From Escherichia virus TH29, in sequence record MT446403.1: 53,648 nt of DNA; one strand, written 5' to 3'. The notes under the pieces were generated by a model that worked only from the letters and a program-made list of their open reading frames with translations, made no database searches and was not told where the DNA came from. The translations under genes were made by a program, and so were the position numbers. Shown piece after piece: positions 7,850 through 53,648 of this stretch. Position 1 is the first letter of the stretch; each line of letters begins with the position of its first letter.

Positions 7850-8133
7850 TTTATTCTCCTAAGTTAAAAGAAAACTCCCGTCATAACGATTGTGGAGGTC
7901 TTGTGTTACCTTAATCCACCTTAAAGAATCAGGGAGTTACATATTAGTCTGTGTGTGCTGCTCTCGGTTACTTCCTAGTATTGCGAAGCTCTTGCATTCC
8001 CGCAAACCACACCTTTTGCACAGACCGTATGTGACACAACAAGTGCCGAAAACTACAATGATTAGCTTGGAGACATAATCTCTCTAAAATCTGTCACACA
8101 ATTTCAGCAGAATTTACAGAGATTTGGTCTTAT

Positions 8134-8149
8134 TCACATGCAACTAATG
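8134..8149 (-). promoter_or_regulatory. Conserved motif copy tcacatgCAACTAATGa (variant)
   Basis: Inside the 7.86-9.1 kb non-coding control region. Confidence 0.35.
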
Positions 8150-8342
8150 ATAAATGGACATGCTTAATTGCAACCAATTCATCTGCCAAATAGACGAATT
8201 TAGTCACAATCAAACATGCATCATTAATTACAGGTTTGCTCCTATCTTGGAATGTATTTGGCACATCAAGAAGTGGCGCAACAGGTACGGAAAACCGACC
8301 ATGTACAGCATAATAAAACTAATTAAATAAAGGGTTTTATCC

Positions 8343-8360
8343 CAATATTGTCACAATATT
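8343..8360. repeat. Tandem palindrome CAATATTG-tca-CAATATT, operator-like
   Basis: CAATATTG is self-complementary; the same 18-mer recurs at 8592-8609 with degenerate copies nearby and at 11383-11601; often followed by ACATGC. Confidence 0.5.
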
Positions 8361-8591
8361 TACATGCGATGATAAAGCCTTCGCTTGGCTGGAAGCCAGT
8401 ATTCATGCGGGTTGCAAGAATATTGGGTCAATACTGATATAGCTATTACATGCGAAATTGGCACAAATACTGTTACAAAATTAACATGCCGGATTGGTAG
8501 ACAATTGTATCTTCGAGGTGATTAGTCCTCTAACAATTCTGCCACATTCTAACATGCCAATTTGTAGCAATATTTACATGCCATACTATGA

Positions 8592-8609
8592 CAATATTGT
8601 CACAATATT
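8592..8609. repeat. Second exact copy of CAATATTG-tca-CAATATT
   Basis: Identical 18-mer to 8343-8360. Confidence 0.5.
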
Positions 8610-8983
8610 TGTTGCTCAAATTCGGGTGCGGCTACGAGACTAATCTCGATGCTTTGCTCCGACTCTTCTCTTCTTTCGAATTCTGATTGAAAGAAAGAAG
8701 CATGTCCAAAAGTTCCAGTCTTGCCAAAGTTATCTCCCGGCTTGTGGGTGGGCCTTGATAATAGGAGAATACAATATTGGAACAATTGGTCATGCTTGTA
8801 TTGAAGAACAGTTTCGAATGATAATCCTACTTCACACATGGTTGTTGGAGCTTTGTCTGGCCAAAGACAGGGAGTTCAATGATTGCCACATCATTACAAC
8901 ACTGTGTGTTTAGTTGACATGCTGAAATGTTTCTAGAATGATTTCAACATGACATGCGGAATACTTCTCCGTATTCTGTTACT

Positions 8984-9000
8984 TCACATCCAACTAATGT
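8984..9000 (-). promoter_or_regulatory. Conserved motif copy tcacatCCAACTAATGT
   Basis: Just downstream (minus sense) of the RNAP terminator and upstream of the repeat-rich region. Confidence 0.45.
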
Positions 9001-9062
9001 CGAATATTGAAACAATATTACATGCAGCAATATTGCTTGAATATTGGGAATTAAAGGATTTA

Positions 9063-9109
9063 ATTAATAAAGAATAAAGAAAGGGCCATCACCTTTCGAT
9101 GACAGCCCT
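9063..9109 (-). terminator. Rho-independent terminator after the RNA polymerase gene
   Basis: Hairpin AGGGC/GCCCT plus CATC/GATG at 9082-9109, followed on the minus strand by UUCUUUAUUCUUUAUU, directly after the stop at 9117-9119. Confidence 0.6.
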
Positions 9110-9116
9110 AGGTCTA

Positions 9117-11057
9117 TTACTGGCAGAAGTAGTAAGCGTGTTCGCTCATAAGCAGCTCTTCAGTAACAATGTTCTCGTGGTACATGTTGATGCCACCAAG
9201 TTGCTTAGACAGAGATTCAAACTGGTTATTATGAACAAAGATTTCAATATAAGCAGAACGAATAACTTCCATCATTTTAGGAGCATCAGCCAAGCAGCAA
9301 CGGAAACAATCGTGAATTGAAGTAAAGCCACGAAGACCAGCTTCTTTAGCTTTGACTGCAACAGTACGAGCAACCAATGCGTCAATACCTTGAATGTAGT
9401 TAACAACGAAGGTACGCTTGAATTCTTCTTTAGTTGGATTGGACTCACGAATGGTCCAAGGCTTATTCTCCTGAATCTGACCAAAGATGACACGAGTTTG
9501 ACTATCAACACGAATGCTGAATGCATCACAAACATCACGAGATGGGAAGCAAGGCTTCATTACAACTTGACCATCAGTGTGCTTATAGGTGATGTACTCT
9601 TTGTTGAGTTCAACACAACGAGCAAATGCAGCATCAGCAGCTTTCTCAATGAACATGTTAATCTTAGCACCCAATGCGTTATGGATTGCTTCTACACACA
9701 GTTCAGCAAATGCCTCAGCTTTCTCCATAGGAATCTGGAGCGCTTCTGTCATGTATGCAATGAAGTCAGAAGAACCAGTTAATGCAGCTTTACCACCACC
9801 ATATTGGATAGCCATGTATGGAGTTTTGATAAACTTACGACCAGCTTTCGGATTCAAGAATTCATCCATAATTTCAGCGGATGGTTTCATTGAAGAACGG
9901 TCTAATAACTTCAACAGTTCACGGAGAGATAACTGGTATGGGTCAGATGCTTTAGTCTCAGAATCAACCAGACCTGTAGCACGAGCCATTTCCATGTTAC
10001 CAGCAATGAATGCCAGATATTGAGTACCAGAACATTTAGCATCTAAGCCAAAGCCTACACGAGAATCACACTCACCTGTAGTCTCAAACTTGAACCAATC
10101 CAGAGCCAGACGAACATAAGTGAATGGCTTAGAAGGACGCTCACCTTTAGGCATGTTCAGCATACGAGCCAAAGAACCAGCAGGATTCTGTGCAACATAG
10201 GTTAAACGTTTTGCAGAAGTCCAGTCTCCACCAGCAATATCTTCCAGCTCAAGCATGAACATGTTGTATGCCAGAGTTGTTGAACCATCAGCATTAAACT
10301 TGCTCACAGTGTTCTCAACATTGTGGGAATACAGGCAACGAGCAAAGTCAGATGATTGTGGGTTAGGACCAGCACATGCTACATGATACAAACGACCACG
10401 GTTATCAGCAAAGTAGTCAGAGAACAGAGTGTCCTGACCAACCATTGCTACAGCATTGTTCCAAACATGGAGTTCAGTCTGGATTGCTTCTGGCATCTGT
10501 AAGCCACCAAATGTACGTTGTTCTAACATGGAAGAGATAACCCTAACCATTGTTGCATCAACGTGATATTCAGTATCTTGCAGGAATTCGATTGCAGCTT
10601 TCAGAGTTTTGGATGGCTTAACTTTGCCACCTTTAACGAAAGGCTTGCGACGAGATTCAGTTGTTACCTTCTCAGTGAATGGAACTGAGGTATCTTTGGT
10701 TGTAACCAGTTCAACCCATGCATCAGTCATCTGGAACGATTTGTCCTCGTTCATGGTGATGAAACCGAAGTGTTTAGCCAGACCAATCAGGTTGATAGCT
10801 GGGTCAACATAGTGCATTGACTTTAAGTCGTTGTTGTAACGGTTGGCATCAGCAATGGAAGCAGAAGCCAGTTCAACCATCGAGATAGCTGGAATAACGT
10901 CATCACGCGTGAAAGACGTCATCATCTTGAATATGGCTAAGGCAGCAATAGCACAAGTCTGAGGCTGCATATAGTTCTGCTTCTCTTTGGCACGGTATAC
11001 CAGAGCGGTGATAGCAGGGACAACAGATTTGATAGTTTGAGTAGTGATAGTAGTCAT
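9117..11057 (-). CDS. Single-subunit (T7-like) DNA-dependent RNA polymerase, compact form of about 646 aa
   Basis: Motifs align to T7 RNAP: DNRGRLYHV, LDAKCSGTQYLA (motif A), RKFIKTPYMAIQYGGG (motif B), IHDCFRCCLAD (motif C). Start set at MTTITTQ (ATG 11055-11057, GGAGA RBS), not the ORF-track TTG at 11144. Confidence 0.85.
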   Translation of the reverse strand: MTTITTQTIKSVVPAITALVYRAKEKQNYMQPQTCAIAALAIFKMMTSFTRDDVIPAISMVELASASIADANRYNNDLKSMHYVDPAINLIGLAKHFGFITMNEDKSFQMTDAWVELVTTKDTSVPFTEKVTTESRRKPFVKGGKVKPSKTLKAAIEFLQDTEYHVDATMVRVISSMLEQRTFGGLQMPEAIQTELHVWNNAVAMVGQDTLFSDYFADNRGRLYHVACAGPNPQSSDFARCLYSHNVENTVSKFNADGSTTLAYNMFMLELEDIAGGDWTSAKRLTYVAQNPAGSLARMLNMPKGERPSKPFTYVRLALDWFKFETTGECDSRVGFGLDAKCSGTQYLAFIAGNMEMARATGLVDSETKASDPYQLSLRELLKLLDRSSMKPSAEIMDEFLNPKAGRKFIKTPYMAIQYGGGKAALTGSSDFIAYMTEALQIPMEKAEAFAELCVEAIHNALGAKINMFIEKAADAAFARCVELNKEYITYKHTDGQVVMKPCFPSRDVCDAFSIRVDSQTRVIFGQIQENKPWTIRESNPTKEEFKRTFVVNYIQGIDALVARTVAVKAKEAGLRGFTSIHDCFRCCLADAPKMMEVIRSAYIEIFVHNNQFESLSKQLGGINMYHENIVTEELLMSEHAYYFCQ

Positions 11058-11124
11058 TTGTAAGTCTCCAAGATTGTGTATGATTTGAATGAAACGGATT
11101 ATAATAGCGTAGCCATTACACAAT

Positions 11125-11140
11125 TCACGTCCAACTAATA
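11125..11140 (-). promoter_or_regulatory. Conserved motif copy tcacgtCCAACTAATa
   Basis: About 70 bp upstream of the RNAP start codon. Confidence 0.45.
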
Positions 11141-11326
11141 TCACAAACCTGTGCCATTGTTAGCACAGCACAGGGACTTTGACCTTGACTCATAAGCGAA
11201 GCGCCTAACTTGGTGTTGTTTGAAAGCCGATAGGCTGCAGGAAAAAGTTGGGGCAGGGACCGTATTTAAGTCCGATAGGACGTTGGGCTTCCCCTCCCCG
11301 CCACCTCAAAAATAAAAATAATATCG

Positions 11327-11401
11327 CCACAATTCTAGTCTCGTCAATATCGTTACAATTCTAGTCTCATTAATATTGTAGCAATTCGAGTCTCATTAAT
11401 T
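11327..11401. repeat. Three tandem 24-25 bp direct repeats (iteron-like)
   Basis: ccacaattctagtctcgtcaatat / gttacaattctagtctcattaatat / gtagcaattcgagtctcattaatt, head to tail. Confidence 0.6.
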
Positions 11402-11452
11402 CCGTAACAATATTTAAATTAAAAAAAATTATATAAAAATTTTTTATAACAT
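11402..11452. promoter_or_regulatory. Strongly AT-rich tract next to the iterons, possible DNA unwinding element
   Basis: ccgtaacaatatttaaattaaaaaaaattatataaaaattttttataac is nearly pure A/T. Confidence 0.4.
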
Positions 11453-11717
11453 AGTCGGACTTCTGTTCGAACAAATTTCGGCTAGATACAGCTGACCGAT
11501 TGTGAACGAATCTATGTCTAGGTACAGTTGACCGACCATGTACCATTTGGTTTTGAATTTTACGCATTCCTAATATTACTCTTAATATTGTAGCAATATT
11601 GGGAATAAATAAATATTTAACTTACTTATTTTATTCTAGCTCAAAGAGAAACGACGCTAACGCATCGAATCTCTTCTCACATATTAACTGACAAACGTCA
11701 GCCTTCACCATATCCAA

Positions 11718-12836
11718 TCATAATTCAAATCCACCGAGTGCATTAGTATCAACTTCAGAGTCAATTTGCCCAACCAGGTAGGAACTAATCTCAGTCTCCT
11801 GTGGAGCAACCTGTACAGCATCCGAATTCAACCATGCATTAATCCACGGAATAGGATTCGTAGCATCCTTAAATGGAGCATCTAATCCAACTGCTTGCAT
11901 ACGAATATTCGTGATATATTCCACATATCCACACAGAATTTGCTTGTTTAAGCCTATCATTGAGCCATCTTTGAACAGATAATCGGCCCAATCTTTCTCT
12001 TGTTGAGCAGCATCTTCGAACAATTTCTGGCATTCTTCACGACATTCTTGAGCAATTTCGCCCATTTCTGGGTCATCTTTTCCACTCGCCAGAATATTCA
12101 ACATGTGCTGAGTTCCGGTCAAATGGAGTGCTTCATCTCGTGCAATCAGTCGAATAATCTTGGCATTTCCTTCCATTAGCTTACGTTCAGCGAAGGCAAA
12201 TGAGCAAGCAAAGCTAACATAGAAGCGAATTGCTTCCAGTGCGTTGATAGACATGAGGCATAAATAGAGCTTCTTCTTCAACTCACGAAGACTAATTTCA
12301 TGACCGACATGATTCCCTTCCCCAAACAACTGCCATAATGCAGTAAGTTGTTGGAGTTCGTCGTAATATTGGGAGATGCCAATTGCCCGTGCTTTGATAT
12401 GTTCGTTAGTTACGATTTCATCAAAGATTACGCTTGGGTCTGTAACGATGTTACGGATAATGTGAGTGTAAGAACGTGAATGGATAGTCTCGGAGAAGGA
12501 CCAAGTTTCAATCCAAGTTTCAAGCTCAGGAATGCTAACGATTGGAAGCAAAACTGTGTTAGGCCCACGTCCCTGAATGGAGTCCAGAAGGATTTGATAG
12601 CGCAAATTACTGGTGAAAATGTGCTGCTCATTTGGTGGGAGCTTCTGATAATCAATACGGTCTTGTGAAACATCCACCTCTTCTGGTCGCCAGAAGAATG
12701 ACAATTGTTTCTCAATCAACTTCTCGAATATGCCATACTTCTGCTGGTCATAGCGAGCAACGTTGACGTTCTGACCAAAGAACATTGGTTCTAATAGTTG
12801 GTTATTCTTGGTTTGTGAAAAGGTAGTGTAAGACAT
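11718..12836 (-). CDS. nrdB: Class Ia ribonucleotide reductase small subunit (NrdB), very close to enterobacterial NrdB
   Basis: 372 aa; N-terminus [22 protein letters not shown] and internal [29 protein letters not shown] are near-identical to E. coli NrdB as recalled from memory (roughly 80 percent, not computed). Confidence 0.9.
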
Positions 12837-12838
12837 TA

Positions 12839-13399
12839 TTATTTATTTCCTAAATACTTATAAAATTTGTGTCCACCGTAGACTCCTCTTCCAGCAACTC
12901 TTTTGAAATTGCATTTCTCTGTAGCTGTGCAGAAGTGGGTGGCATCGGTTGCATCTGGAGCATCCAACAATGCGAAGTTAATTGCTACATTCATGGTGTC
13001 CCAAACCTGTTTTGATTCAGTCTTCCAATTTGTTTTAACTATGTTCTTCCATTGAGCATTCTTCTTCTTTGCTTCTCTTGTCCAAGCAAACTGGTTGCGT
13101 TGATAAACTACATCGCAAACGGTGTTAGCGAATGGCTTCCCGAATTTGACTCGATTACGGACGACATTAGCTACCAGAATCTTTCCATGTTTGCTTTCTC
13201 CACGAGCTTCAAACCAAATTACTTTGGCATAGCATTCTATATCTTTGCGTTGAGAAATAGATAGTTTCGGATTTCCATTTAAATAGGATTGACTTGCAAA
13301 TTCTGTAATAGTGGCGTTCACTGCCCCAGCCGAAGCTGGGACATTTGCGTGAAACAGACTCACCAACAGAAATGCAAGAACTTGTGCTGAGGGCATCAT
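12839..13399 (-). CDS. SleB-like cell-wall hydrolase with N-terminal signal peptide, probable endolysin
   Basis: 186 aa; signal-like [24 protein letters not shown] and [29 protein letters not shown] typical of the SleB/Hydrolase_2 family. Confidence 0.7.
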
Positions 13400-13414: not shown

Positions 13415-13756
13415 TTATTTGGCCTTCTTAAACCAATTGAGTGGGTTGAGTTGTTTGATTGCAGCAGTGAAGCAATCTCGAATTGTGGTAATGATTAGGT
13501 TAGCCCCAATCAAACCAATCACCATTGCAGCGATTGTGGCATAGCGCGGTTCATCTTTGAATATGTCCACGAAGCCGGGGAGGGAGAAAACGAACGTACC
13601 AATGACCACACAAAGCAGAGCATCGAGAATAGCTTTCAGCAAGCCTTCCTTTTCATATGCCCCACGAATGAGTGCAGTCAATCCAGCCAGGAGTCCATGA
13701 AGAACTCCATACTGGTGCATTGCTTCCCAAACCATTTGGAAAGTTTGTCTATCCAT
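13415..13756 (-). CDS. Holin-like membrane protein
   Basis: 113 aa with three hydrophobic segments and a basic C-terminus (KKAK), immediately upstream of the SleB-like hydrolase. Confidence 0.55.
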   Translation of the reverse strand: MDRQTFQMVWEAMHQYGVLHGLLAGLTALIRGAYEKEGLLKAILDALLCVVIGTFVFSLPGFVDIFKDEPRYATIAAMVIGLIGANLIITTIRDCFTAAIKQLNPLNWFKKAK

Positions 13757-14298
13757 TAGAATTCTTTCCAGTCGATTGTTTTAGTTAAGTCGAGTTGAGA
13801 AAGTTTGATACGCTTCTTCTTAAGTTCAATCAACATTTCGTTGTCAGACTTCTTAGCCATACCAAGCTCAACCATGTCAGTGAGAATACCGATTTCTTCG
13901 GTCAGTGGTGCGAGTTTCTTCTTACGCATAAACTCGTTATATTTCACACGGTTTTCTTTGTGCTCAACAAACTTCTCACCATCAAACTTCCAGAAGTGTC
14001 TGTTTTCTTCAACACCATCTGGCAGTGATTCCAGCTCAACTATGTTTCCACCGAGCGGTGTAGCCACAGTATCACCAGGACCAAAGTCAATGTGTCGGAT
14101 AGAGCCATCATTTTCGTACACAACTTTGGCTGTACCGTCTTTTAAAGATTTACGAATCTCGTACCAACATGTTCCATTCTTATCGCATCCGAATAGAATC
14201 TTGTGCTCGTCCCTGAGCACTTGTTGGCTTTCAGTCAGGTTCGTATTCTCAACAAACCCTTCATACTTACACAGAATAGCTGTCATACCATGTTCCAT
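13756..14298 (-). CDS. Hypothetical protein, possibly tail fibre assembly chaperone
   Basis: 180-aa ORF directly downstream of the distal tail-fibre gene; call is positional only. Confidence 0.35.
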   Translation of the reverse strand: MEHGMTAILCKYEGFVENTNLTESQQVLRDEHKILFGCDKNGTCWYEIRKSLKDGTAKVVYENDGSIRHIDFGPGDTVATPLGGNIVELESLPDGVEENRHFWKFDGEKFVEHKENRVKYNEFMRKKKLAPLTEEIGILTDMVELGMAKKSDNEMLIELKKKRIKLSQLDLTKTIDWKEF

Positions 14299-15619
14299 TC
14301 ATATATTTCTGGAGTTTACGACGACCAACGTAGTCGATGAATTCGTCAGCAGTTTGGTTGATTACAGCAGTGATTACCCAACCAGATTCATCTCGATACC
14401 CGTAGCCACGCCATGTGGTAGTCTCTTGGTAGGAGGCCAGGCGAATATCGCTCATGAAAGAAGCGTTTACCCAATTCTCTCGTGCAAAACGGAATGGACC
14501 ACCATTGCCAGTGTAGTCAATGTTGCCGTCATTCTGGAATGTCCAGTTGTGTACAGCACCATTATCACCACGTCGTGAGATTACAGGATTTGAGAAATCA
14601 TTATTTCTGCTGTACGCACCAAACGAAATATGGGTTCCATACCCTTGACCAGATGTTACAGTTTGGAGTGTCAAGATTGGGACCCAGGCATCTGGACCAA
14701 CTTCACAGTTGTACACTCCATAAGGGACGTGCCCATCTGTCTCTTGACCCCAACCACGGCCCCAAGTTACGCCGCGATACTGCCCATTCAGGAACAGCTT
14801 GAAGTCTGTGCCAGTTCCACGTAAAGCTAACTGATTGTATCCTTCTGCGATAATACGTGCAGTGTAGTCTAAACCAGAGTTTGCATAGTGGAAGTCGATG
14901 TATGGAATATCGTTATACAACTCTATTGCACCAACTTCTGTGATGCGGTCGCGCTGATTTACTCGTGCAAGCTCTCTCCAATCGGCCCAATTCTGCGAGG
15001 AATCAAGCGTACGACTACGAACCCAAACGTTACCATATATGGATGTATAGCGTTGCTGTACACCATATGCAGTTGGCAAAACTTCCAGTGTGCCAGCATG
15101 TGCTGCTGGATAGCCACCAGCAGAGCCAGCAACAGCATCAGACTCTTGATAATAAACACCAACATCTGACGCACCTGTAAACAGGTTAATGTTCGCGCTT
15201 CCGGCATCCTTGCAAGACATTAGGGGTTGCGCTGTGTACGACCTGCTACCAGACGGTCCGCGAGAATAGTACATGATTGGAGGTCGCGCTGCCTCACCAT
15301 GTGTTACGAGGATGGAGGCATTGCTGTTATCAGAAATTCCAAGCACAGTTATAATTACATATGCCCCACTGAACTTCCCAAGGTCCCACTTCTGTAACTC
15401 TGGTGGAACGTTTACAGCAGAGTTCATCTCAACATATAGAACTTCACCATTGGTGAATGTGTATGTATTGAAATTGAAGTTTGTTACAAATGCTGTGGTT
15501 GGAATCTGGGCATTCTTTTGTCCAACAGTGATTACTTCACCACGAGCAGTACCTGCATTTAAGAATGCAGCAGACTTTAAGGCGGCAATTAAGCCGCCAA
15601 ATGACCAACCTTTAGCCAT
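14267..15619 (-). CDS. Tail fibre / receptor-binding protein
   Basis: 450 aa, Gly/Ser/Thr/Asn/Tyr-rich, following two tail-fibre genes. Confidence 0.55.
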   Translation of the reverse strand: MAKGWSFGGLIAALKSAAFLNAGTARGEVITVGQKNAQIPTTAFVTNFNFNTYTFTNGEVLYVEMNSAVNVPPELQKWDLGKFSGAYVIITVLGISDNSNASILVTHGEAARPPIMYYSRGPSGSRSYTAQPLMSCKDAGSANINLFTGASDVGVYYQESDAVAGSAGGYPAAHAGTLEVLPTAYGVQQRYTSIYGNVWVRSRTLDSSQNWADWRELARVNQRDRITEVGAIELYNDIPYIDFHYANSGLDYTARIIAEGYNQLALRGTGTDFKLFLNGQYRGVTWGRGWGQETDGHVPYGVYNCEVGPDAWVPILTLQTVTSGQGYGTHISFGAYSRNNDFSNPVISRRGDNGAVHNWTFQNDGNIDYTGNGGPFRFARENWVNASFMSDIRLASYQETTTWRGYGYRDESGWVITAVINQTADEFIDYVGRRKLQKYMNGTWYDSYSV

Positions 15620-23564: not shown

Positions 23565-26500
23565 TTATCTACGTTCCATTGCACCATTACCCATGTTGAT
23601 TGTTTGGGTAACAGTTTGACCGTTCGGAGTTGACACGGTTGCAGACGCTTGCTTATTGTTCACAGTAGCTTTGACTTCAACGTTAACTACAGTGGCCTGT
23701 GTCTGACCATAAGACAGTCCATTTCTGGTGAAGCCAGTTGCACCTTCTGCAATAGAATCGCCCTGAGAAGCCCATTCACGGTACTTCTTGACGCGGTTCT
23801 GTGCCTGTAGAGGAACAGCATTGAGCCAGTCGGTTCCGTGTTTGTTGATAGCATCATCAACAGTTCCAGCACCATCCGTATACGCCGCCATAGCCTTCTC
23901 AGCGTCACCATTATAACGCTTGAGCATTGCATCATAGTAGTCACGACCAACGCGAGCACGCTCTTCCAGCGAGTTATCACGGGCAGGTTTAACACCAAAT
24001 CCTGGGTCACGGGAAGTTGAATCAAGAACCTGCATACGACCTTTAGCACCAGTCGGAGATGTAACCACCGAACCATCTGCGTTCAAATCGCGGTTCCCTG
24101 ACTCCTCTCCTGCGATAAAGTCATATACCGTTCTGGTAGTATCAGCTAAACCATTTGACGCTGTACGCGCTACTCTGGCTGCATCTCCACCTGCTTCGAT
24201 AAATGAACTCCCGTAGGATATTGCAGCTTGCGGAACTGCGTATCCTGGCAGCACCCCAGCACGCTCCGTCTGCGCTATTCCTAGCTGTGCAACGCCATCG
24301 GCATACTGTGAGTTGGCTCCACGGCTTACGTTCTCCTGAGCCTCGTTCACGCTGTAATCTGTACGGTCATAGGCGCGAGCCATGCCATCCAGACCTGCCA
24401 TCTCCATAGCCCCAGCGATACGAGCCTGACTCCAGCCCCGCTCCTGACCACGTTCACGCATTACCCGCGCTAAGGCCACAGGGTCGCCCTGTGCCGCACG
24501 AATGTCGCCAATAGTGATAAGACCACGGGTTCCCTGAACGATGTTGACAGCGCCGCTGGGGTCGCCATTCAGGAGGGTGTTATAGGCACTATGTGTGGTT
24601 CGATTGAGTCGGCCAGCTTGTTGCTGATTAAGCCCCAACATTTCCAAGCCCTGCGACATGGAAGAATACTCATTAGGGTTATTGACACCAGCGTCTAAAG
24701 AGTTTCCGTAGAAATCGTTCAGACCTTCGAGCGCCTCGTTACCAATCTGGGTAGCACCAATAGCCATACCCGCCACACGACCCCACGGAGTCATCATGAG
24801 AGCATTCATCGCACCATTGGATAGTGAGCCTATACTACCGCCAGCCACGCCAGCAGCCAATGCGCCACCAGCACGACCGAAGTCATCTGAGAAGCTGCCG
24901 CCAGTGTTCCAACCACGACCACCGCCGCCACCGGAACCACCTCCACCAATGCCATAACTACTAGCATCGAAGGTGTCCCAGAAGCCGCCACCACCGCCAC
25001 GACCACCATTGTCCCCGAAGTCGGCATCTTGTCCACGCAGCTTGTTTTCTTCCTGAGCAGCGAGGATACCTTTCTTGACAGATACTGCCATCAGGTCATT
25101 ACCAGTTGTGCTGTCAGAGCCTACGGCAGAGGCTGTGGCTTCACCAACTCCAGCACTGGTACGGTTGCCTATGAATGGGTCATCGGCTGTACCAGCAGCG
25201 GCAGAGTAGCCACGCGTTGACTTCTGCTTAACATCCTTCCAGATGCCATCGCCAGTCATTGCAGCACGAGCACCTTTGATTAAATCATCATTGGACAAGT
25301 CTGAATTAGCTTCAACAAACTCTCGACCAGCATTAAGACGACCAATAGTAGAATCAATCTTATCTTTGTTGCGTTCGTACCATCCCTCGTCTTTCTCAAT
25401 CCATTCCGATACCGTCTTGTCTCCGATTGTCTGAGAGAACAATGCACGACTACGGCCAGATACAAGCATACCAAATTGAATTTGGTCGAGGTAATCCTTA
25501 TGCTCACCAGCAGATAGGTTAGAAAACTTCTTAGCCCTTTCAGGGTTCTTGTGTTCCCAAATCGCGTCATCACCGATAAGGCCATCTGGGGAATACATGA
25601 ACGACGGATAATTGTCATTTGTTATTGCGCCAGCTTGCTCAATGTCGAATCCAAACTCTTTGGCGACACGGTTACGAGCAACTTCTTCCGTCCGATGACC
25701 TGCTTCGAACATTCGTTGGGTAAATTCACTTGGCCCCTTTCCGCGTTGTAGGCCAATTTTATCAACCATTGCAGCCCAAGGTCGAGTATATTCATTGTTA
25801 CCAAGAAATGAACCGACAGTTGAGCCAGTAATGTCATATTGCTTGCGGAAGTCTAACCATTCCTGAGTGCCCTGTTCCATGTTGTGATAACGGATTGGAC
25901 CTTCTTGCGGAGCTGGTTGTGGAGCAGAGTCCAAATTAGATATAGCAATGCTCTCGCGACGGGCGCGAGCAGAGTTCCAACTTGTTGGAGAATCAAGTTG
26001 TGCAAGAAACTCTGTAGAGGGACTCAGTTCTACAGGTCCAGTATTCCTTAAACGTTCAGCAGGGTCGAATGTTCGAGCGACTTCTGCCTCATTATATTGA
26101 TGAGCATTCTCAAGAACGCCACGAATAGATGAACCAGAGTAACGAGGGTCGTCACCAATATCTTTCTTAAGGTTATCGTAACCGGAACGAACATCTGCAA
26201 TGTCTGCGTAACGAGAAGCAGAGTCCAGAATTAAATCTCTGTCAGAAGATTGAGTGCGATATGCATTCATTCCTCTTTCAGCACCACCAGAATAAACCTT
26301 TGCCGCAGATTTAACTACGCCAGAAACATCTTGGTAGAGCGTTTTGCTTGCATCAGACCAACCTGGAGAACCAGACAAGGATGCAGATAAAGAATATTCA
26401 GCCTTAATGCCACCACCAAACGAACCAAGAGGTAAACCAGATGCGTTAAGAGGCTGTCGAGGATGCTGAATATCACCGACAATAGATTCGGAGCCAAGTT

Positions 26501-27242
26501 GTGGCAATGAATCCATGTATGAAAGTTTTGGCCCCGACTTATTTCCTACATTCATTGCAGATACGGCAGCAACTTCTCGGAAGTTTTGCGGTAATTCTGA
26601 TTCTAAACGTTTGGCTACACGATAAACATCTCGTGCATAGCGGTCTGGGTTGTCGTATTGTTCACGGTCAACATACATGTGAGCAAGATAACCAAATGAC
26701 TTGGCAATATCTCCACGGTTTGTGGAATATTCATCCATAATATTACCGGTGTAGTGTCCGGCAAGTTCAGGCATTATATCTTGATGACCTGCAAGAGTAT
26801 CTCGCATGTACGAGTTAAGCATTCCCCAATGACCTTCCGGCTTGTTGGGGTTGGCTTTAGGCATGTGCATCCAAACATCATCAGTGGATACACCAAGTTG
26901 TTCCATGTATGCGTGAACTGCTTCTACATGGTGTCCTGGTCCGTTCATTGCAGCATGGAATGTTTCAGTCAGCCCAGCACCAGAAATCATCTGTGCTACA
27001 TGTGCTGCATCTGAAATCATATCAGAAGTCCCGTATGAAGTTTCATCCTCATACATCTGGGAATCTGGTTCGCCCAAAAGCTGTGAATTTGTTTCCATCC
27101 AACCTGACGCAGCACTTGATTCAAGTTGCTGGGCCATATCTCGTTTGCGCATACCAGGATTGAAGGACAGACCGTACTGAGCACCCATGCCGATTAGTTC
27201 GGCCTCGGATAGCTTCATTAAATCTTTTAAGTTCTTAGCCAT
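23565..27242 (-). CDS. Tail tape measure protein with C-terminal lytic transglycosylase (SLT) domain
   Basis: 1225 aa; Gly-rich central tract (GGGGGFWDTF..., GGGGSGGGGGRGW); C-terminal ESGNRDLNADG...GAKGRMQVLDSTSRD...AYTDGAG matches SLT motifs. Confidence 0.8.
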   Translation of the reverse strand: MAKNLKDLMKLSEAELIGMGAQYGLSFNPGMRKRDMAQQLESSAASGWMETNSQLLGEPDSQMYEDETSYGTSDMISDAAHVAQMISGAGLTETFHAAMNGPGHHVEAVHAYMEQLGVSTDDVWMHMPKANPNKPEGHWGMLNSYMRDTLAGHQDIMPELAGHYTGNIMDEYSTNRGDIAKSFGYLAHMYVDREQYDNPDRYARDVYRVAKRLESELPQNFREVAAVSAMNVGNKSGPKLSYMDSLPQLGSESIVGDIQHPRQPLNASGLPLGSFGGGIKAEYSLSASLSGSPGWSDASKTLYQDVSGVVKSAAKVYSGGAERGMNAYRTQSSDRDLILDSASRYADIADVRSGYDNLKKDIGDDPRYSGSSIRGVLENAHQYNEAEVARTFDPAERLRNTGPVELSPSTEFLAQLDSPTSWNSARARRESIAISNLDSAPQPAPQEGPIRYHNMEQGTQEWLDFRKQYDITGSTVGSFLGNNEYTRPWAAMVDKIGLQRGKGPSEFTQRMFEAGHRTEEVARNRVAKEFGFDIEQAGAITNDNYPSFMYSPDGLIGDDAIWEHKNPERAKKFSNLSAGEHKDYLDQIQFGMLVSGRSRALFSQTIGDKTVSEWIEKDEGWYERNKDKIDSTIGRLNAGREFVEANSDLSNDDLIKGARAAMTGDGIWKDVKQKSTRGYSAAAGTADDPFIGNRTSAGVGEATASAVGSDSTTGNDLMAVSVKKGILAAQEENKLRGQDADFGDNGGRGGGGGFWDTFDASSYGIGGGGSGGGGGRGWNTGGSFSDDFGRAGGALAAGVAGGSIGSLSNGAMNALMMTPWGRVAGMAIGATQIGNEALEGLNDFYGNSLDAGVNNPNEYSSMSQGLEMLGLNQQQAGRLNRTTHSAYNTLLNGDPSGAVNIVQGTRGLITIGDIRAAQGDPVALARVMRERGQERGWSQARIAGAMEMAGLDGMARAYDRTDYSVNEAQENVSRGANSQYADGVAQLGIAQTERAGVLPGYAVPQAAISYGSSFIEAGGDAARVARTASNGLADTTRTVYDFIAGEESGNRDLNADGSVVTSPTGAKGRMQVLDSTSRDPGFGVKPARDNSLEERARVGRDYYDAMLKRYNGDAEKAMAAYTDGAGTVDDAINKHGTDWLNAVPLQAQNRVKKYREWASQGDSIAEGATGFTRNGLSYGQTQATVVNVEVKATVNNKQASATVSTPNGQTVTQTINMGNGAMERR

Positions 27243-38579: not shown

Positions 38580-39032
38580 CTAAACTCGTCCAGTTGAACC
38601 AAACCCACCTTCACCACGAACAGTAGAATTTAAGTGGTCAACTTCAACGAAATGGTGTTGAGTAGCTTTACTAACTTGCACTTGACAAACACGTTCGCCT
38701 GGTTGAATAACAAAGGCTGTGTCCGAGTCGTTGTGCAGCTTAACCATAAGATTACCGCGATAGTCGGAATCCAGAATGCCTGTGCAATTTGCAAGGCGAA
38801 TACCAGACTTAAAGCCGTGACCAGAACGGCTATGCACTTTGAGTTCGTATCCAATTGGTACTTCGAACTGGAGGCCAGTATCGACAACAACAGAAGAGCC
38901 GGGATTGATAACAACAGTGGTATCGGATACAGTACAAACATCAGCAGCAGCAGCGCCAGCTGTAGCGTACACAGGTAATTTCGCATTAGGATGTACTCGC
39001 TTAACTGCAACAACTTGGGTAATACAGGACAT
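38580..39032 (-). CDS. dut: dUTP diphosphatase (dUTPase)
   Basis: 150 aa with GILDSDYRG and C-terminal RGEGGFGSTG motifs. Confidence 0.85.
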   Translation of the reverse strand: MSCITQVVAVKRVHPNAKLPVYATAGAAAADVCTVSDTTVVINPGSSVVVDTGLQFEVPIGYELKVHSRSGHGFKSGIRLANCTGILDSDYRGNLMVKLHNDSDTAFVIQPGERVCQVQVSKATQHHFVEVDHLNSTVRGEGGFGSTGRV

Positions 39033-47349: not shown

Positions 47350-48000
47350 TTATTCCTGATTGGTCAGAGCCTTCCAGCAAATTGGGAATAGTTCTGACAT
47401 AATTTTATTCACTTCTTCCGCAAACAAGCGAACTTCATACTGCGCATGTTCGGAGGAACGTTGATTATACATGGATGCCCAGCCATAAAGAGAGCCAGTC
47501 CAAACCCATTCAGTCATCATGGATTGTGGCAACACCATGCGAGCTTGCTCTGGAGCAATCCCCAAACCAATTAACGTTTCATATTCTGCAATGCAAGCCT
47601 TGTTATGGCTTTCCATGCGATAATGAATATCGTCAGCAAAATCTTGTGGCAACGATTGTGCAGTCTGAGTCATCAACTTCTCAGGACGACCGAGTACAAC
47701 ATCTGGTACAAAGCATTCAATCGAGATTGCTTCACCATCTTTGTAACGACGGCTAACTTCATTCCAGCTAAAGCCAGTTTGGTGTTTGCCAAGCTGACGT
47801 GCAATGAAGAGTGGAGCTTTGCAACGCAGGGTTACTTGTGCATGACGGAATGGCGTAATGTGCTTATGCTTTGCAAGAAACTCAATCAGCTTCTCGTCAC
47901 GTAAAGATATTTCATGCGACTCTGCACCATAAGAAACTCGTGCAGCATTAACAGTTGTAAGGTCGCTGCCCATGTGGTCAACGAGTGTGGCAGTAATCAT
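47350..48000 (-). CDS. ThyX-like flavin-dependent thymidylate synthase homologue with divergent active-site motif
   Basis: 216 aa; AARVSYG, KAPLFIARQ and the overall pattern match ThyX, but the RHR(x7)S signature reads KHQTGFSWNEVS. Confidence 0.65.
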   Translation of the reverse strand: MITATLVDHMGSDLTTVNAARVSYGAESHEISLRDEKLIEFLAKHKHITPFRHAQVTLRCKAPLFIARQLGKHQTGFSWNEVSRRYKDGEAISIECFVPDVVLGRPEKLMTQTAQSLPQDFADDIHYRMESHNKACIAEYETLIGLGIAPEQARMVLPQSMMTEWVWTGSLYGWASMYNQRSSEHAQYEVRLFAEEVNKIMSELFPICWKALTNQE

Positions 48001-52923: not shown

Positions 52924-53648
52924 TCAATTCCAACTAATGTCGAATACTCTTCTTGCAAACAGGACAAGTGATGAATCTGTATGCAAAGTATCCTCGGTCA
53001 TTCTTTCCTGTGTACATCTTTAAGTCAGAGAACACGTAAGATATTGCAGAGAAACATACCCACACTGGCGTGTGAATGTTACGTTATCCTTTTCCAAAAC
53101 TTTTATCATTTCAATTCCAACTAATGTTTCAGAATTATTCCAATATTCCAAACAAAAAGAATAATAAGAATAAATTAAAAATAAATGAAGAAAGTTCTTG
53201 ACACCCATTTGGCGATAGGTGTATAATGCCTTTCTTCCCTAAGAGGTCAGAATCAAATCCCACTAATGTTTCAGACGAAGTGCCGAAGGCGAATCCTCTC
53301 CCAAACCCGCTTGGAACAAGATGCCTCCGGCCTGGAACTATACTGCTTTCCAATCTGAATCAAACAGTTCCTTTGGTCTTGAATAAATTATCGAATTAAT
53401 TCCCAAGAAAGTGTGATTTCCATACTTCTTAACTTCCTGGTAAGCAAATCCATCTACCCAATTACCGCAGTGGGTTTTAATCTTTGTAGCAAACAGAATT
53501 CGGTAGTAGTGACCACGTGGCTGGTGGAAGAGAATATCTTCTGGCTTGATTGAGTTGATATTTAAATCAGACATTTAAGAACAATACCCCTTCGGAGAAG
53601 ATGTAGTCACTGCCGTAATCTTTGGTGATTGCATCCCAATCAATATAT
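52924..53648. repeat. Right copy of direct terminal repeat (identical to 1-725)
   Basis: Exact repeat of the left end, including the three motif copies, the sigma70 promoter (53198-53227) and the 78-aa ORF (53338-53574). Confidence 0.9.

Follow-up and report, generated by a model that had tools for sequence, protein, structure and literature searches.

An intact orphan nrdB gene as an old core gene of Carltongylesvirus phages and probable partner of the host ribonucleotide reductase

A class Ia beta subunit in a genome without nrdA

Most chordopoxviruses encode only the small subunit (R2) of ribonucleotide reductase (RNR), and the vaccinia R2 protein (F4) forms functional hybrids with the large subunit (R1) of the host via the R2 C-terminus; such hybrid complexes support viral DNA synthesis (PMC2900304). 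Among phages, Dwivedi et al. (2013) reported that 'two phages only contain nrdB', which are listed in their Table S1 as phiEcoM-GJ1 and the Campylobacter phage CPt10 (PMC3653736), and the last open reading frame (ORF) of phage ST32 was described as an RNR beta subunit (PMC6266442). The nrdB-only state of this lineage is therefore already known and the gene is correctly called in the GenBank records of the genus Carltongylesvirus; as an annotation it is routine, and the interest lies in its function. Here, the nrdB gene of Escherichia virus TH29 (sequence record MT446403.1) was analyzed within the whole available stretch of 53,648 nucleotides, hereafter the window:

11718..12836, minus strand: nrdB, class Ia ribonucleotide reductase beta subunit of 372 amino acids; ORF from ATG to TGA; PF00268, NF006576

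The encoded protein matched Pfam family PF00268 with an E value of 2e-50 (172 bits, cut-off 33.6) and the NCBIfam equivalog for class Ia NrdB, NF006576, with 718.6 bits at a cut-off of 346 bits, whereby residues 1-372 were aligned to profile positions 1-376. Solved E. coli R2 structures were matched at E 8e-205. E. coli NrdB (PDB 7AI8, 1MXR and 6W4X chain C) is colinear with the phage protein over its full length and has the same type of tail, and 300 of 376 positions (79.8%) are identical. An earlier interpretation of this DNA that was made without database searches (the sequence-only reading) had recognized a host-like nrdB, and a host-type class Ia nrdB is confirmed by the full-length match to NF006576 and by this identity. 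It had further described the two proteins as nearly identical over long stretches. This holds for the longest identical runs (28, 22 and 21 residues), but is overstated for the protein as a whole.

The residues that make up the radical cofactor and its transfer pathway are conserved. All six di-iron ligands (D84, E115, H118, E204, E238 and H241 in E. coli numbering) are identical, also across the phage clade, and the radical tyrosine Y122 is present as phage residue 123 and is not Phe as in class Ic. The radical-transfer residues W48 and Y356 are kept, as are E52, D237 and R236, and in the comparison of metal, radical and proton-coupled electron transfer (PCET) residues 10 of 10 are identical between phage and E. 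coli NrdB. The single deletion of four residues is located in a surface hairpin (E. coli ~176-184; window ~12290-12310, protein residues ~176-181), which is four residues shorter in GJ1-type copies. In the ST32-type NrdB, a protein of 366 amino acids, the same hairpin (E. coli G179-V182 and neighbors) is shortened by ~11 residues, whereas all 34 bacterial NrdBs of the alignment have it at full length.

Among the gammaproteobacteria sampled, 241 alignment columns are invariant. Phage NrdB differs at 12 of these (H68N, K78R, T81I, S90G, V93T, A94V, N131T, D139E, I161Q, V200I, Q306G and N343A). The ratio of nonsynonymous to synonymous substitutions (dN/dS) between genus members was 0.026-0.065, compared with 0.028 for E. 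coli versus Klebsiella nrdB. This ratio, together with the low number of changed invariant columns, excludes a decaying relic. The product of 11718-12836 is an intact class Ia RNR beta subunit, a diferric-tyrosyl-radical protein, and judged by its residues it is probably catalytically competent.

The window is collinear, in reversed orientation, with the 52,975-bp genome of phiEcoM-GJ1 (Chaseviridae, Carltongylesvirus), and the capsid protein, with 92-100% identity to those in 45 Carltongylesvirus records, places it in this genus. The orthologues phiEcoM-GJ1 gp75 and ST32 gp79 are the same gene in the same last-gene position, with 97.6% and 90.6% amino-acid identity, respectively. They differ from the TH29 gene at the strain level (91% and 84% nucleotide identity), and the ST32 type has the further shortened hairpin. 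NrdB was full-length in 45 of 45 genus records with 90-99% amino-acid identity. On the DNA level, nrdB was 84-95% identical in 45 of the 47 matching phage records, the hosts being E. coli, Shigella and Yersinia pseudotuberculosis. The copies form one orthologue group with at least 90% amino-acid identity; TH29, phiEcoM-GJ1 and ST32 have the gene order in common, with holin and endolysin before nrdB, then the genome end and the RNA polymerase gene. The record PP952070.1, named 'Staphylococcus phage Pel53' (53,660 bp, host given as Staphylococcus hyicus), contains nrdB DNA with 92.5% identity that adjoins a lytic transglycosylase gene; by its sequence Pel53 is a Carltongylesvirus, and its host label looks wrong.

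The ends of the window are identical, bases 1-725 being a copy of 52924-53648 (725 bp), so that the assembly is closed and circularly permuted, with a genome unit of 52,923 bp. In six-frame tblastn searches of the window with NrdA of E. coli and of Cronobacter phage vB_CsaP_009, the best E value was 0.2. Because the assembly is closed and complete, the absence of NrdA is valid for the whole genome. A YfaE homologue was likewise not found in the window by tblastn with E. coli YfaE, and the annotated genomes of phiEcoM-GJ1 and ST32 contain no other RNR genes. A search for phage-encoded redoxins with TrxA, GrxA and NrdH as queries gave no match with E < 0.4 in the window, which is a weak negative. 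Remnants of a host operon beside nrdB were considered and rejected, as the NrdA and YfaE searches were empty and the flanks are phage sequence. The orphan state proposed by the sequence-only reading is thus borne out: a complete viral genome encodes only the small subunit, and a cognate nrdA is missing from it. The missing nrdA is a feature of the operon and does not affect the protein-family membership of NrdB.

Compared with the described systems, the phage gene differs from E. coli nrdB in having no adjacent nrdA or yfaE, in the four-residue hairpin deletion and in its phage-like codons. T4 NrdAB and the nrdA-nrdB pair of the Grimontviridae likewise use a class Ia beta subunit as a phage gene for the supply of deoxynucleoside triphosphates (dNTPs), but there the phage's own alpha gene adjoins beta, and T4-type NrdB is ~47-52% identical to the TH29 protein versus 80% for E. 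coli NrdB. For poxviruses, the usual rationale for an R2 gene is the cell-cycle restriction of host R2, to which there is no obvious bacterial counterpart. The likeness to poxviruses lies in the presence of the small radical-generating subunit only, in its closeness to the subunit of the host and in the conservation of a C-terminal motif binding the large subunit (PMC2900304). The poxvirus system is eukaryotic and its hybrids were demonstrated experimentally, whereas for the phage we infer the pairing.

Compatibility with the large subunit of the host

As the closed genome lacks alpha, phage beta2 most likely uses host NrdA, and the statement of the sequence-only reading that a functional product would have to do so agrees with the complete genome. 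The explanation that we consider likely is that nrdB, as a fixed core gene, provides a functional beta subunit which pairs with host NrdA and supports the reductase during infection. Phage beta2 would dock on host NrdA (alpha2) via its conserved C-terminal tail, the conserved Y122-W48-Y356 pathway would carry the radical, and ribonucleotide reduction by the hybrid enzyme would continue during phage replication. The dNTP supply would be backed by two further enzymes of the phage, which are also present in Pectobacterium phage PM1 (Suwonvirus):

47350..48000, minus strand: ThyX-type thymidylate synthase; PF02511, E 6.5e-43; also in PM1
38580..39032, minus strand: dUTPase; PF00692, E 3.7e-24; also in PM1

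Since both genes are common to PM1, nrdB was added to an older set for dNTP supply. As to the benefit, our guess is that newly assembled, radical-loaded beta2 might be replenished after host shut-off.

The fit between phage beta and host alpha was assessed with the beta residues that touch alpha in the 2.6-Å cryo-electron microscopy structure of the active E. coli alpha2beta2 complex (tables S9-S12; PMC11482829). Of the direct alpha contacts of E. coli beta, 29 of 32 are identical in phage NrdB, and so are 14 of the 15 water-bridged ones. The beta tail D342-L375 contains 26 direct contacts (PMC11482829) and therefore dominates the interface between alpha and beta. In the phage protein 26 of the 34 tail residues are identical to E. 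coli, including L370, F373 and L375, and the direct contacts in the tail are unchanged except N343A and D368N. The tail is nearly invariant in the phage clade, and several of its substitutions are also seen in natural bacterial tails. By its sequence, phage beta2 fits docking on an E. coli-type alpha, although this is no proof.

Several observations weigh against such a pairing. The alpha contacts N131T, N343A and D368N differ, and two of the three are invariant in the sampled bacteria. Identity at alpha contacts is 91% versus 79%, a difference that is not significant (one-sided Fisher p = 0.08). Phages with their own NrdA conserve these contact residues to the same degree, so that contact conservation does not single out pairing with the host. 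On these two grounds, enrichment of identity at alpha contacts was rejected as a discriminator. Furthermore, the distal end of a late lysis operon is an unusual place for a gene of nucleotide metabolism, and no copy of the phage promoter consensus of phiEcoM-GJ1 (CATTAGTTGG) was found between ~22391 and nrdB. Expression data for nrdB were not found in the literature, and Dwivedi et al. (2013) call the functionality of such incomplete sets unknown (PMC3653736).

The differences from E. coli NrdB can also be read as adaptations. In that case phage beta2 would still join host alpha2, and its lineage-specific changes would alter the control of the host enzyme, for example by a weaker inactive alpha4beta4 ring induced by deoxyadenosine triphosphate (dATP) or by a steadier radical, and the gain would be deregulation beyond subunit dosage. 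We regard such a regulatory hijack as unlikely. In its favor are several clade-specific changes at otherwise invariant or near-invariant positions. D302Q and Q306G flank the alpha contacts N300 and Y307, next to the surface of beta in contact with the cone domain of alpha, and they are also near I297, a residue that in the dATP-inhibited ring packs against I47 of alpha (PMC11447812). N131T and N343A are contact residues themselves, and the hairpin is shortened in the phages (by four residues in the GJ1 type and ~11 in the ST32 type) while the sampled bacteria keep it. However, I297 and N300 are conserved, and neutral drift along a long branch could account for the changes. With I297 conserved, an escape from dATP inhibition through loss of this residue was rejected in its simple form. 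It is rather improbable that the hybrids withstand the dATP-driven inactivation as alpha4beta4 or retain their radical better, thereby uncoupling dNTP synthesis from host feedback, and that the recurrence of nrdB-only genomes in unrelated phages (Carltongylesvirus and the jumbo phage Kc263) marks beta as a general viral control point over class Ia RNR.

A protein that is not used as a reductase subunit at all, be it a relic in decay, a di-iron protein with a moonlighting role or a dominant-negative binder by which host RNR is shut down, would agree with the lack of a cognate alpha and with a location among lysis and not replication genes. In betaherpesviruses there are orphan RNR subunits whose roles lie outside RNR. 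For the phage gene this is nevertheless very unlikely, as dN/dS of 0.03-0.07 excludes a relic and a pure binder or inhibitor would need neither Y122 nor the six metal ligands nor the PCET pathway, all of which are invariant across the clade. In addition, ThyX and dUTPase point to boosting of the dNTP supply and not to blocking it.

Age of the gene and its insertion at the genome end

The nrdB gene is an old acquisition and a core auxiliary metabolic gene that became fixed in Carltongylesvirus long ago. This follows from its low nucleotide identity to bacterial genes, its phage-like codons, its position in the tree, its presence in all 45 records and the synonymous divergence (dS) within the genus. 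Nucleotide identity to nrdB of 5,426 complete E. coli genomes was at most 70.9%, and with a proportion of synonymous differences (pS) of 0.86-0.96 against E. coli and Klebsiella nrdB (0.86 against E. coli) the synonymous differences are saturated. The sequence-only reading had suggested a comparison of codon usage and GC content as a check, and its outcome speaks against a recent transfer. The GC content at third codon positions (GC3) is 0.41 in phage nrdB, close to the mean of 52 other phage genes (0.40 +/- 0.04; z +0.23), compared with 0.65 in E. coli nrdB. The relative synonymous codon usage (RSCU) of phage nrdB correlates with that of the rest of the phage at 0.79 (other genes 0.56-0.93) and with that of E. 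coli nrdB at 0.21. Within the genus, dS between nrdB genes reaches 0.5-1.0.

On the protein level, E. coli NrdB is 94-99% identical to NrdB of other Enterobacteriaceae, 88-92% to that of other Enterobacterales, ~85% to that of Pasteurellaceae and 80% to the phage protein. Since phage NrdB is farther from E. coli than Pasteurellaceae NrdB, a recent origin from Enterobacteriaceae is unsupported. In a search of GTDB with one genome per species, the best bacterial matches were Escherichia and Klebsiella with 79-80%, followed among the matches listed by Enterobacterales and Pasteurellaceae with 76-79%; Vibrio NrdB was 76-77% identical. In a neighbor-joining (NJ) tree with 200 bootstraps and a Vibrio root, the Carltongylesvirus clade obtained 100% support and was placed outside Enterobacterales and Pasteurellales, loosely with other phage NrdBs (40-53%). 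The exact position of the clade is weakly supported and its NJ placement may reflect long-branch attraction, but it is outside Enterobacteriaceae. A three-point calculation on dN placed the attachment on the path between E. coli and Haemophilus at a distance of ~0.044 from E. coli, with a phage branch of ~0.115; from the dN values this depth would correspond roughly to the E. coli-Proteus split. Phage NrdB shares 15 of the 24 states that separate Enterobacterales and Pasteurellales from Vibrio. At signature sites it has 3 Enterobacteriaceae-derived and 4 ancestral states, too few to inform on an Enterobacteriaceae origin.

A recent acquisition from an Enterobacteriaceae host, as proposed by the sequence-only reading, would mean that the gene was captured from a current host too recently to have diverged or disappeared. 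Escherichia and Klebsiella NrdBs are indeed marginally closest among bacteria. The same reading had named phage instead of host proteins as nearest relatives as a finding that would contradict it, and this is the case in part: the 45 same-genus phage records are nearest, whereas outside the genus bacterial NrdBs (at most 80%) are closer than those of other phages (at most 76.5%). A recent capture is nonetheless highly improbable given a nucleotide identity of 70-71% with pS 0.86, fully ameliorated GC3 and codon usage, a protein more distant from E. coli than that of Pasteurellaceae and not nested in Enterobacteriaceae in the NJ tree, and signature sites split 3 versus 4. The presence of the gene in every one of the 45 genus records, a dS of up to 1.0 within the genus and the lack of flanking nrdA or yfaE remnants also stand against it. 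Neither near-identical donor DNA nor atypical codon usage nor nesting in a donor clade was observed. The high protein identity to the host enzyme is here due to the extreme constraint under which NrdB evolves and not to recent transfer, and protein identity to a host enzyme alone is unfit for dating acquisitions or predicting hosts. The gene had also been taken to point to the host range; the hosts of the closest relatives are Enterobacterales (E. coli, Shigella and Yersinia), but NrdB identity is a blunt indicator, ranging only from 76 to 80% from Escherichia to Pasteurellaceae and Vibrio.

The site of acquisition was located by blastn against PM1 and Erwinia phage Faunus. Homology to both reaches window position 12838 at the endolysin stop and resumes at ~11416-11334 in the early-promoter region, and this gap defines a ~1.4-kb insertion in Carltongylesvirus at the far right of the unique genome. 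The features of the region are:

11417..12837, minus strand: genus-specific insertion of ~1.4 kb, nrdB plus ~300 bp downstream; blastn against PM1 and Faunus, boundaries approximate
13415..13756, minus strand: holin; PF05106, annotated in relatives
12839..13399, minus strand: endolysin (cell-wall hydrolase); PF07486, annotated in phiEcoM-GJ1 and ST32
12846..12851, minus strand: Shine-Dalgarno-like motif (AGGAAA) located 9 nt upstream of the ATG of nrdB, within the last endolysin codons
11642..11667, minus strand: terminator-like hairpin CGATGCGTTAGCGTCG then TTTCTCTTTG, ~50 nt past the nrdB stop; consensus scan
11318..11420, minus strand: three tandem ~33-bp repeats (GAGACTnGAATTG...ATATT) with sigma-70-like hexamers, e.g. 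TTGACG-18-TATTAT, upstream of the RNA polymerase gene
9117..11144, minus strand: phage T7-like RNA polymerase, first gene of the genome; PF00940, collinear with phiEcoM-GJ1

The order in the window is holin, endolysin, nrdB, ~570 bp of non-coding DNA and the RNA polymerase gene. In phiEcoM-GJ1 and ST32, holin and endolysin precede the orthologue, which is the last gene, and the gene for the T7-like RNA polymerase is the first; as the latter begins the genome, nrdB ends it. The sister genera within the Chaseviridae lack the gene. Neither NrdB nor NrdA nor YfaE was found in the whole 55,098-bp genome of PM1, and the 10-kb stretch from endolysin to RNA polymerase of Faunus contains no NrdB or NrdA, its order being endolysin, ~340 bp, a small ORF and the RNA polymerase gene. 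The unannotated last 3 kb of PM1 (record 52008-55098) contain a 2,665-bp exact copy of the left end, i.e. a direct terminal repeat. It starts 427 bp past the endolysin stop, where Carltongylesvirus carries nrdB. For the genus member PYps23T a terminal repeat of ~2.3 kb was reported (PMC8762354). On the downstream side the insertion is bounded by the early-promoter repeats, and phiEcoM-GJ1 has an annotated host sigma-70 promoter at the equivalent place. The repeats probably represent early host promoters in tandem, similar to T7.

For expression, nrdB would be the distal gene of a late lysis operon; it has a ribosome-binding site of its own and is followed by a terminator-like hairpin. A distance of 2 nt separates the endolysin stop (12839-12841) from the start of nrdB, and the same AGGAAAT motif was given for ST32 gp79 (PMC6266442). 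A sigma-70 scan of the nrdB region yielded 8 matches, compared with 8.3 expected in shuffles. A dedicated phage promoter before nrdB was rejected, as no consensus copy is present and the sigma-70 matches are at shuffle level. The gene is probably expressed by read-through from the late tail and lysis genes and co-transcribed with endolysin, and the hairpin is the likely end of the late transcript.

Large reading frames and orphan small subunits of other phages

Ten ORFs of the window comprise at least 438 amino acids, and nine of them have another Pfam assignment (NrdB, RNA polymerase, a virion protein with YqaJ and SLT domains, terminase, DNA polymerase, primase-helicase, a DUF3383 protein annotated as tail sheath in phiEcoM-GJ1, a tail fiber with a Laminin_G_3 domain, and portal). 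The tenth (14267-15619) has no Pfam match and is collinear with an annotated tail-fiber gene of phiEcoM-GJ1. A phage large subunit that is too divergent, split or otherwise unrecognizable can practically be dismissed: many phage ORFs have no assigned function, but the genome is complete, its largest ORFs are accounted for by Pfam or, for the tenth, by collinearity, tblastn with two NrdA sequences gave chance matches only, and an 80%-identical beta with a host-type tail predicts an equally host-like, easily detected alpha. In the virion protein (23565-27242, minus strand, 1,225 amino acids), a YqaJ-like recombinase/exonuclease domain (residues 461-597) occurs together with an SLT transglycosylase domain at the C-terminus. 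Within the window, GC content is highest in the interval 24001-25000 (0.557 versus ~0.44 overall).

An orphan host-like nrdB is not unique to Carltongylesvirus. Kosakonia phage Kc263 (NC_071015.1) carries nrdB at 8047-9177, the product of which is 78.7% identical to E. coli NrdB, and no NrdA was found in its whole 253,740-bp genome (best E = 0.06). Kc263 is an unrelated nucleus-forming jumbo phage with an annotated nuclear shell protein and PhuZ tubulin, and its NrdB is 76.5% identical to that of TH29 without forming a supported common clade. In Pseudomonas phage OBP (3492-4879), nrdB is followed by a ferredoxin gene whose product is 62% identical to the radical-maintenance protein YfaE of E. 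coli. No nrdA was found within 3.5 kb of OBP nrdB, and downstream a 711-aa protein without Pfam match is encoded. For Agrican357virus, only the RNR beta subunit is listed (PMC6690015). OBP and Agricanvirus possibly also have an orphan nrdB, the whole-genome check covering Kc263 only. In the phage collection, 64-74 records had an NrdB 60-80% identical to that of the window and 41 records an NrdA 60-80% identical to that of E. coli; none of these 41 came from the jumbo Erwinia, Kosakonia and Pseudomonas phages with host-like NrdB.

Two groups of further matches were set aside. The 203 matches to E. coli plasmids appear to be to SSU5-like phage-plasmids (~110 kb) whose relatives carry nrdA, and they are probably not orphans. 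The 494-aa 'NrdB' P0004 is an assembly artefact in which an Erwinia NrdB is interrupted by repeated PVSYTHLDVYKRQ, which we take to be the translation of a transposase sequencing adapter. Non-mobilizable plasmids of ~106-117 kb from Klebsiella, E. coli, Salmonella and Enterobacter contain an nrdB that is ~59% identical, and in SSU5-type phage records of similar size NrdA is ~63% identical to E. coli NrdA.

If phage NrdB works with host NrdA, it would be a bacterial counterpart of the hybrid between poxvirus R2 and host R1. This would suggest that the radical-generating subunit is a limiting or vulnerable part of the dNTP supply in infected bacteria. It would also have a bearing on phage therapy candidates of the genus, with regard to sensitivity to hydroxyurea or iron, and on counts of auxiliary metabolic genes in viromes.

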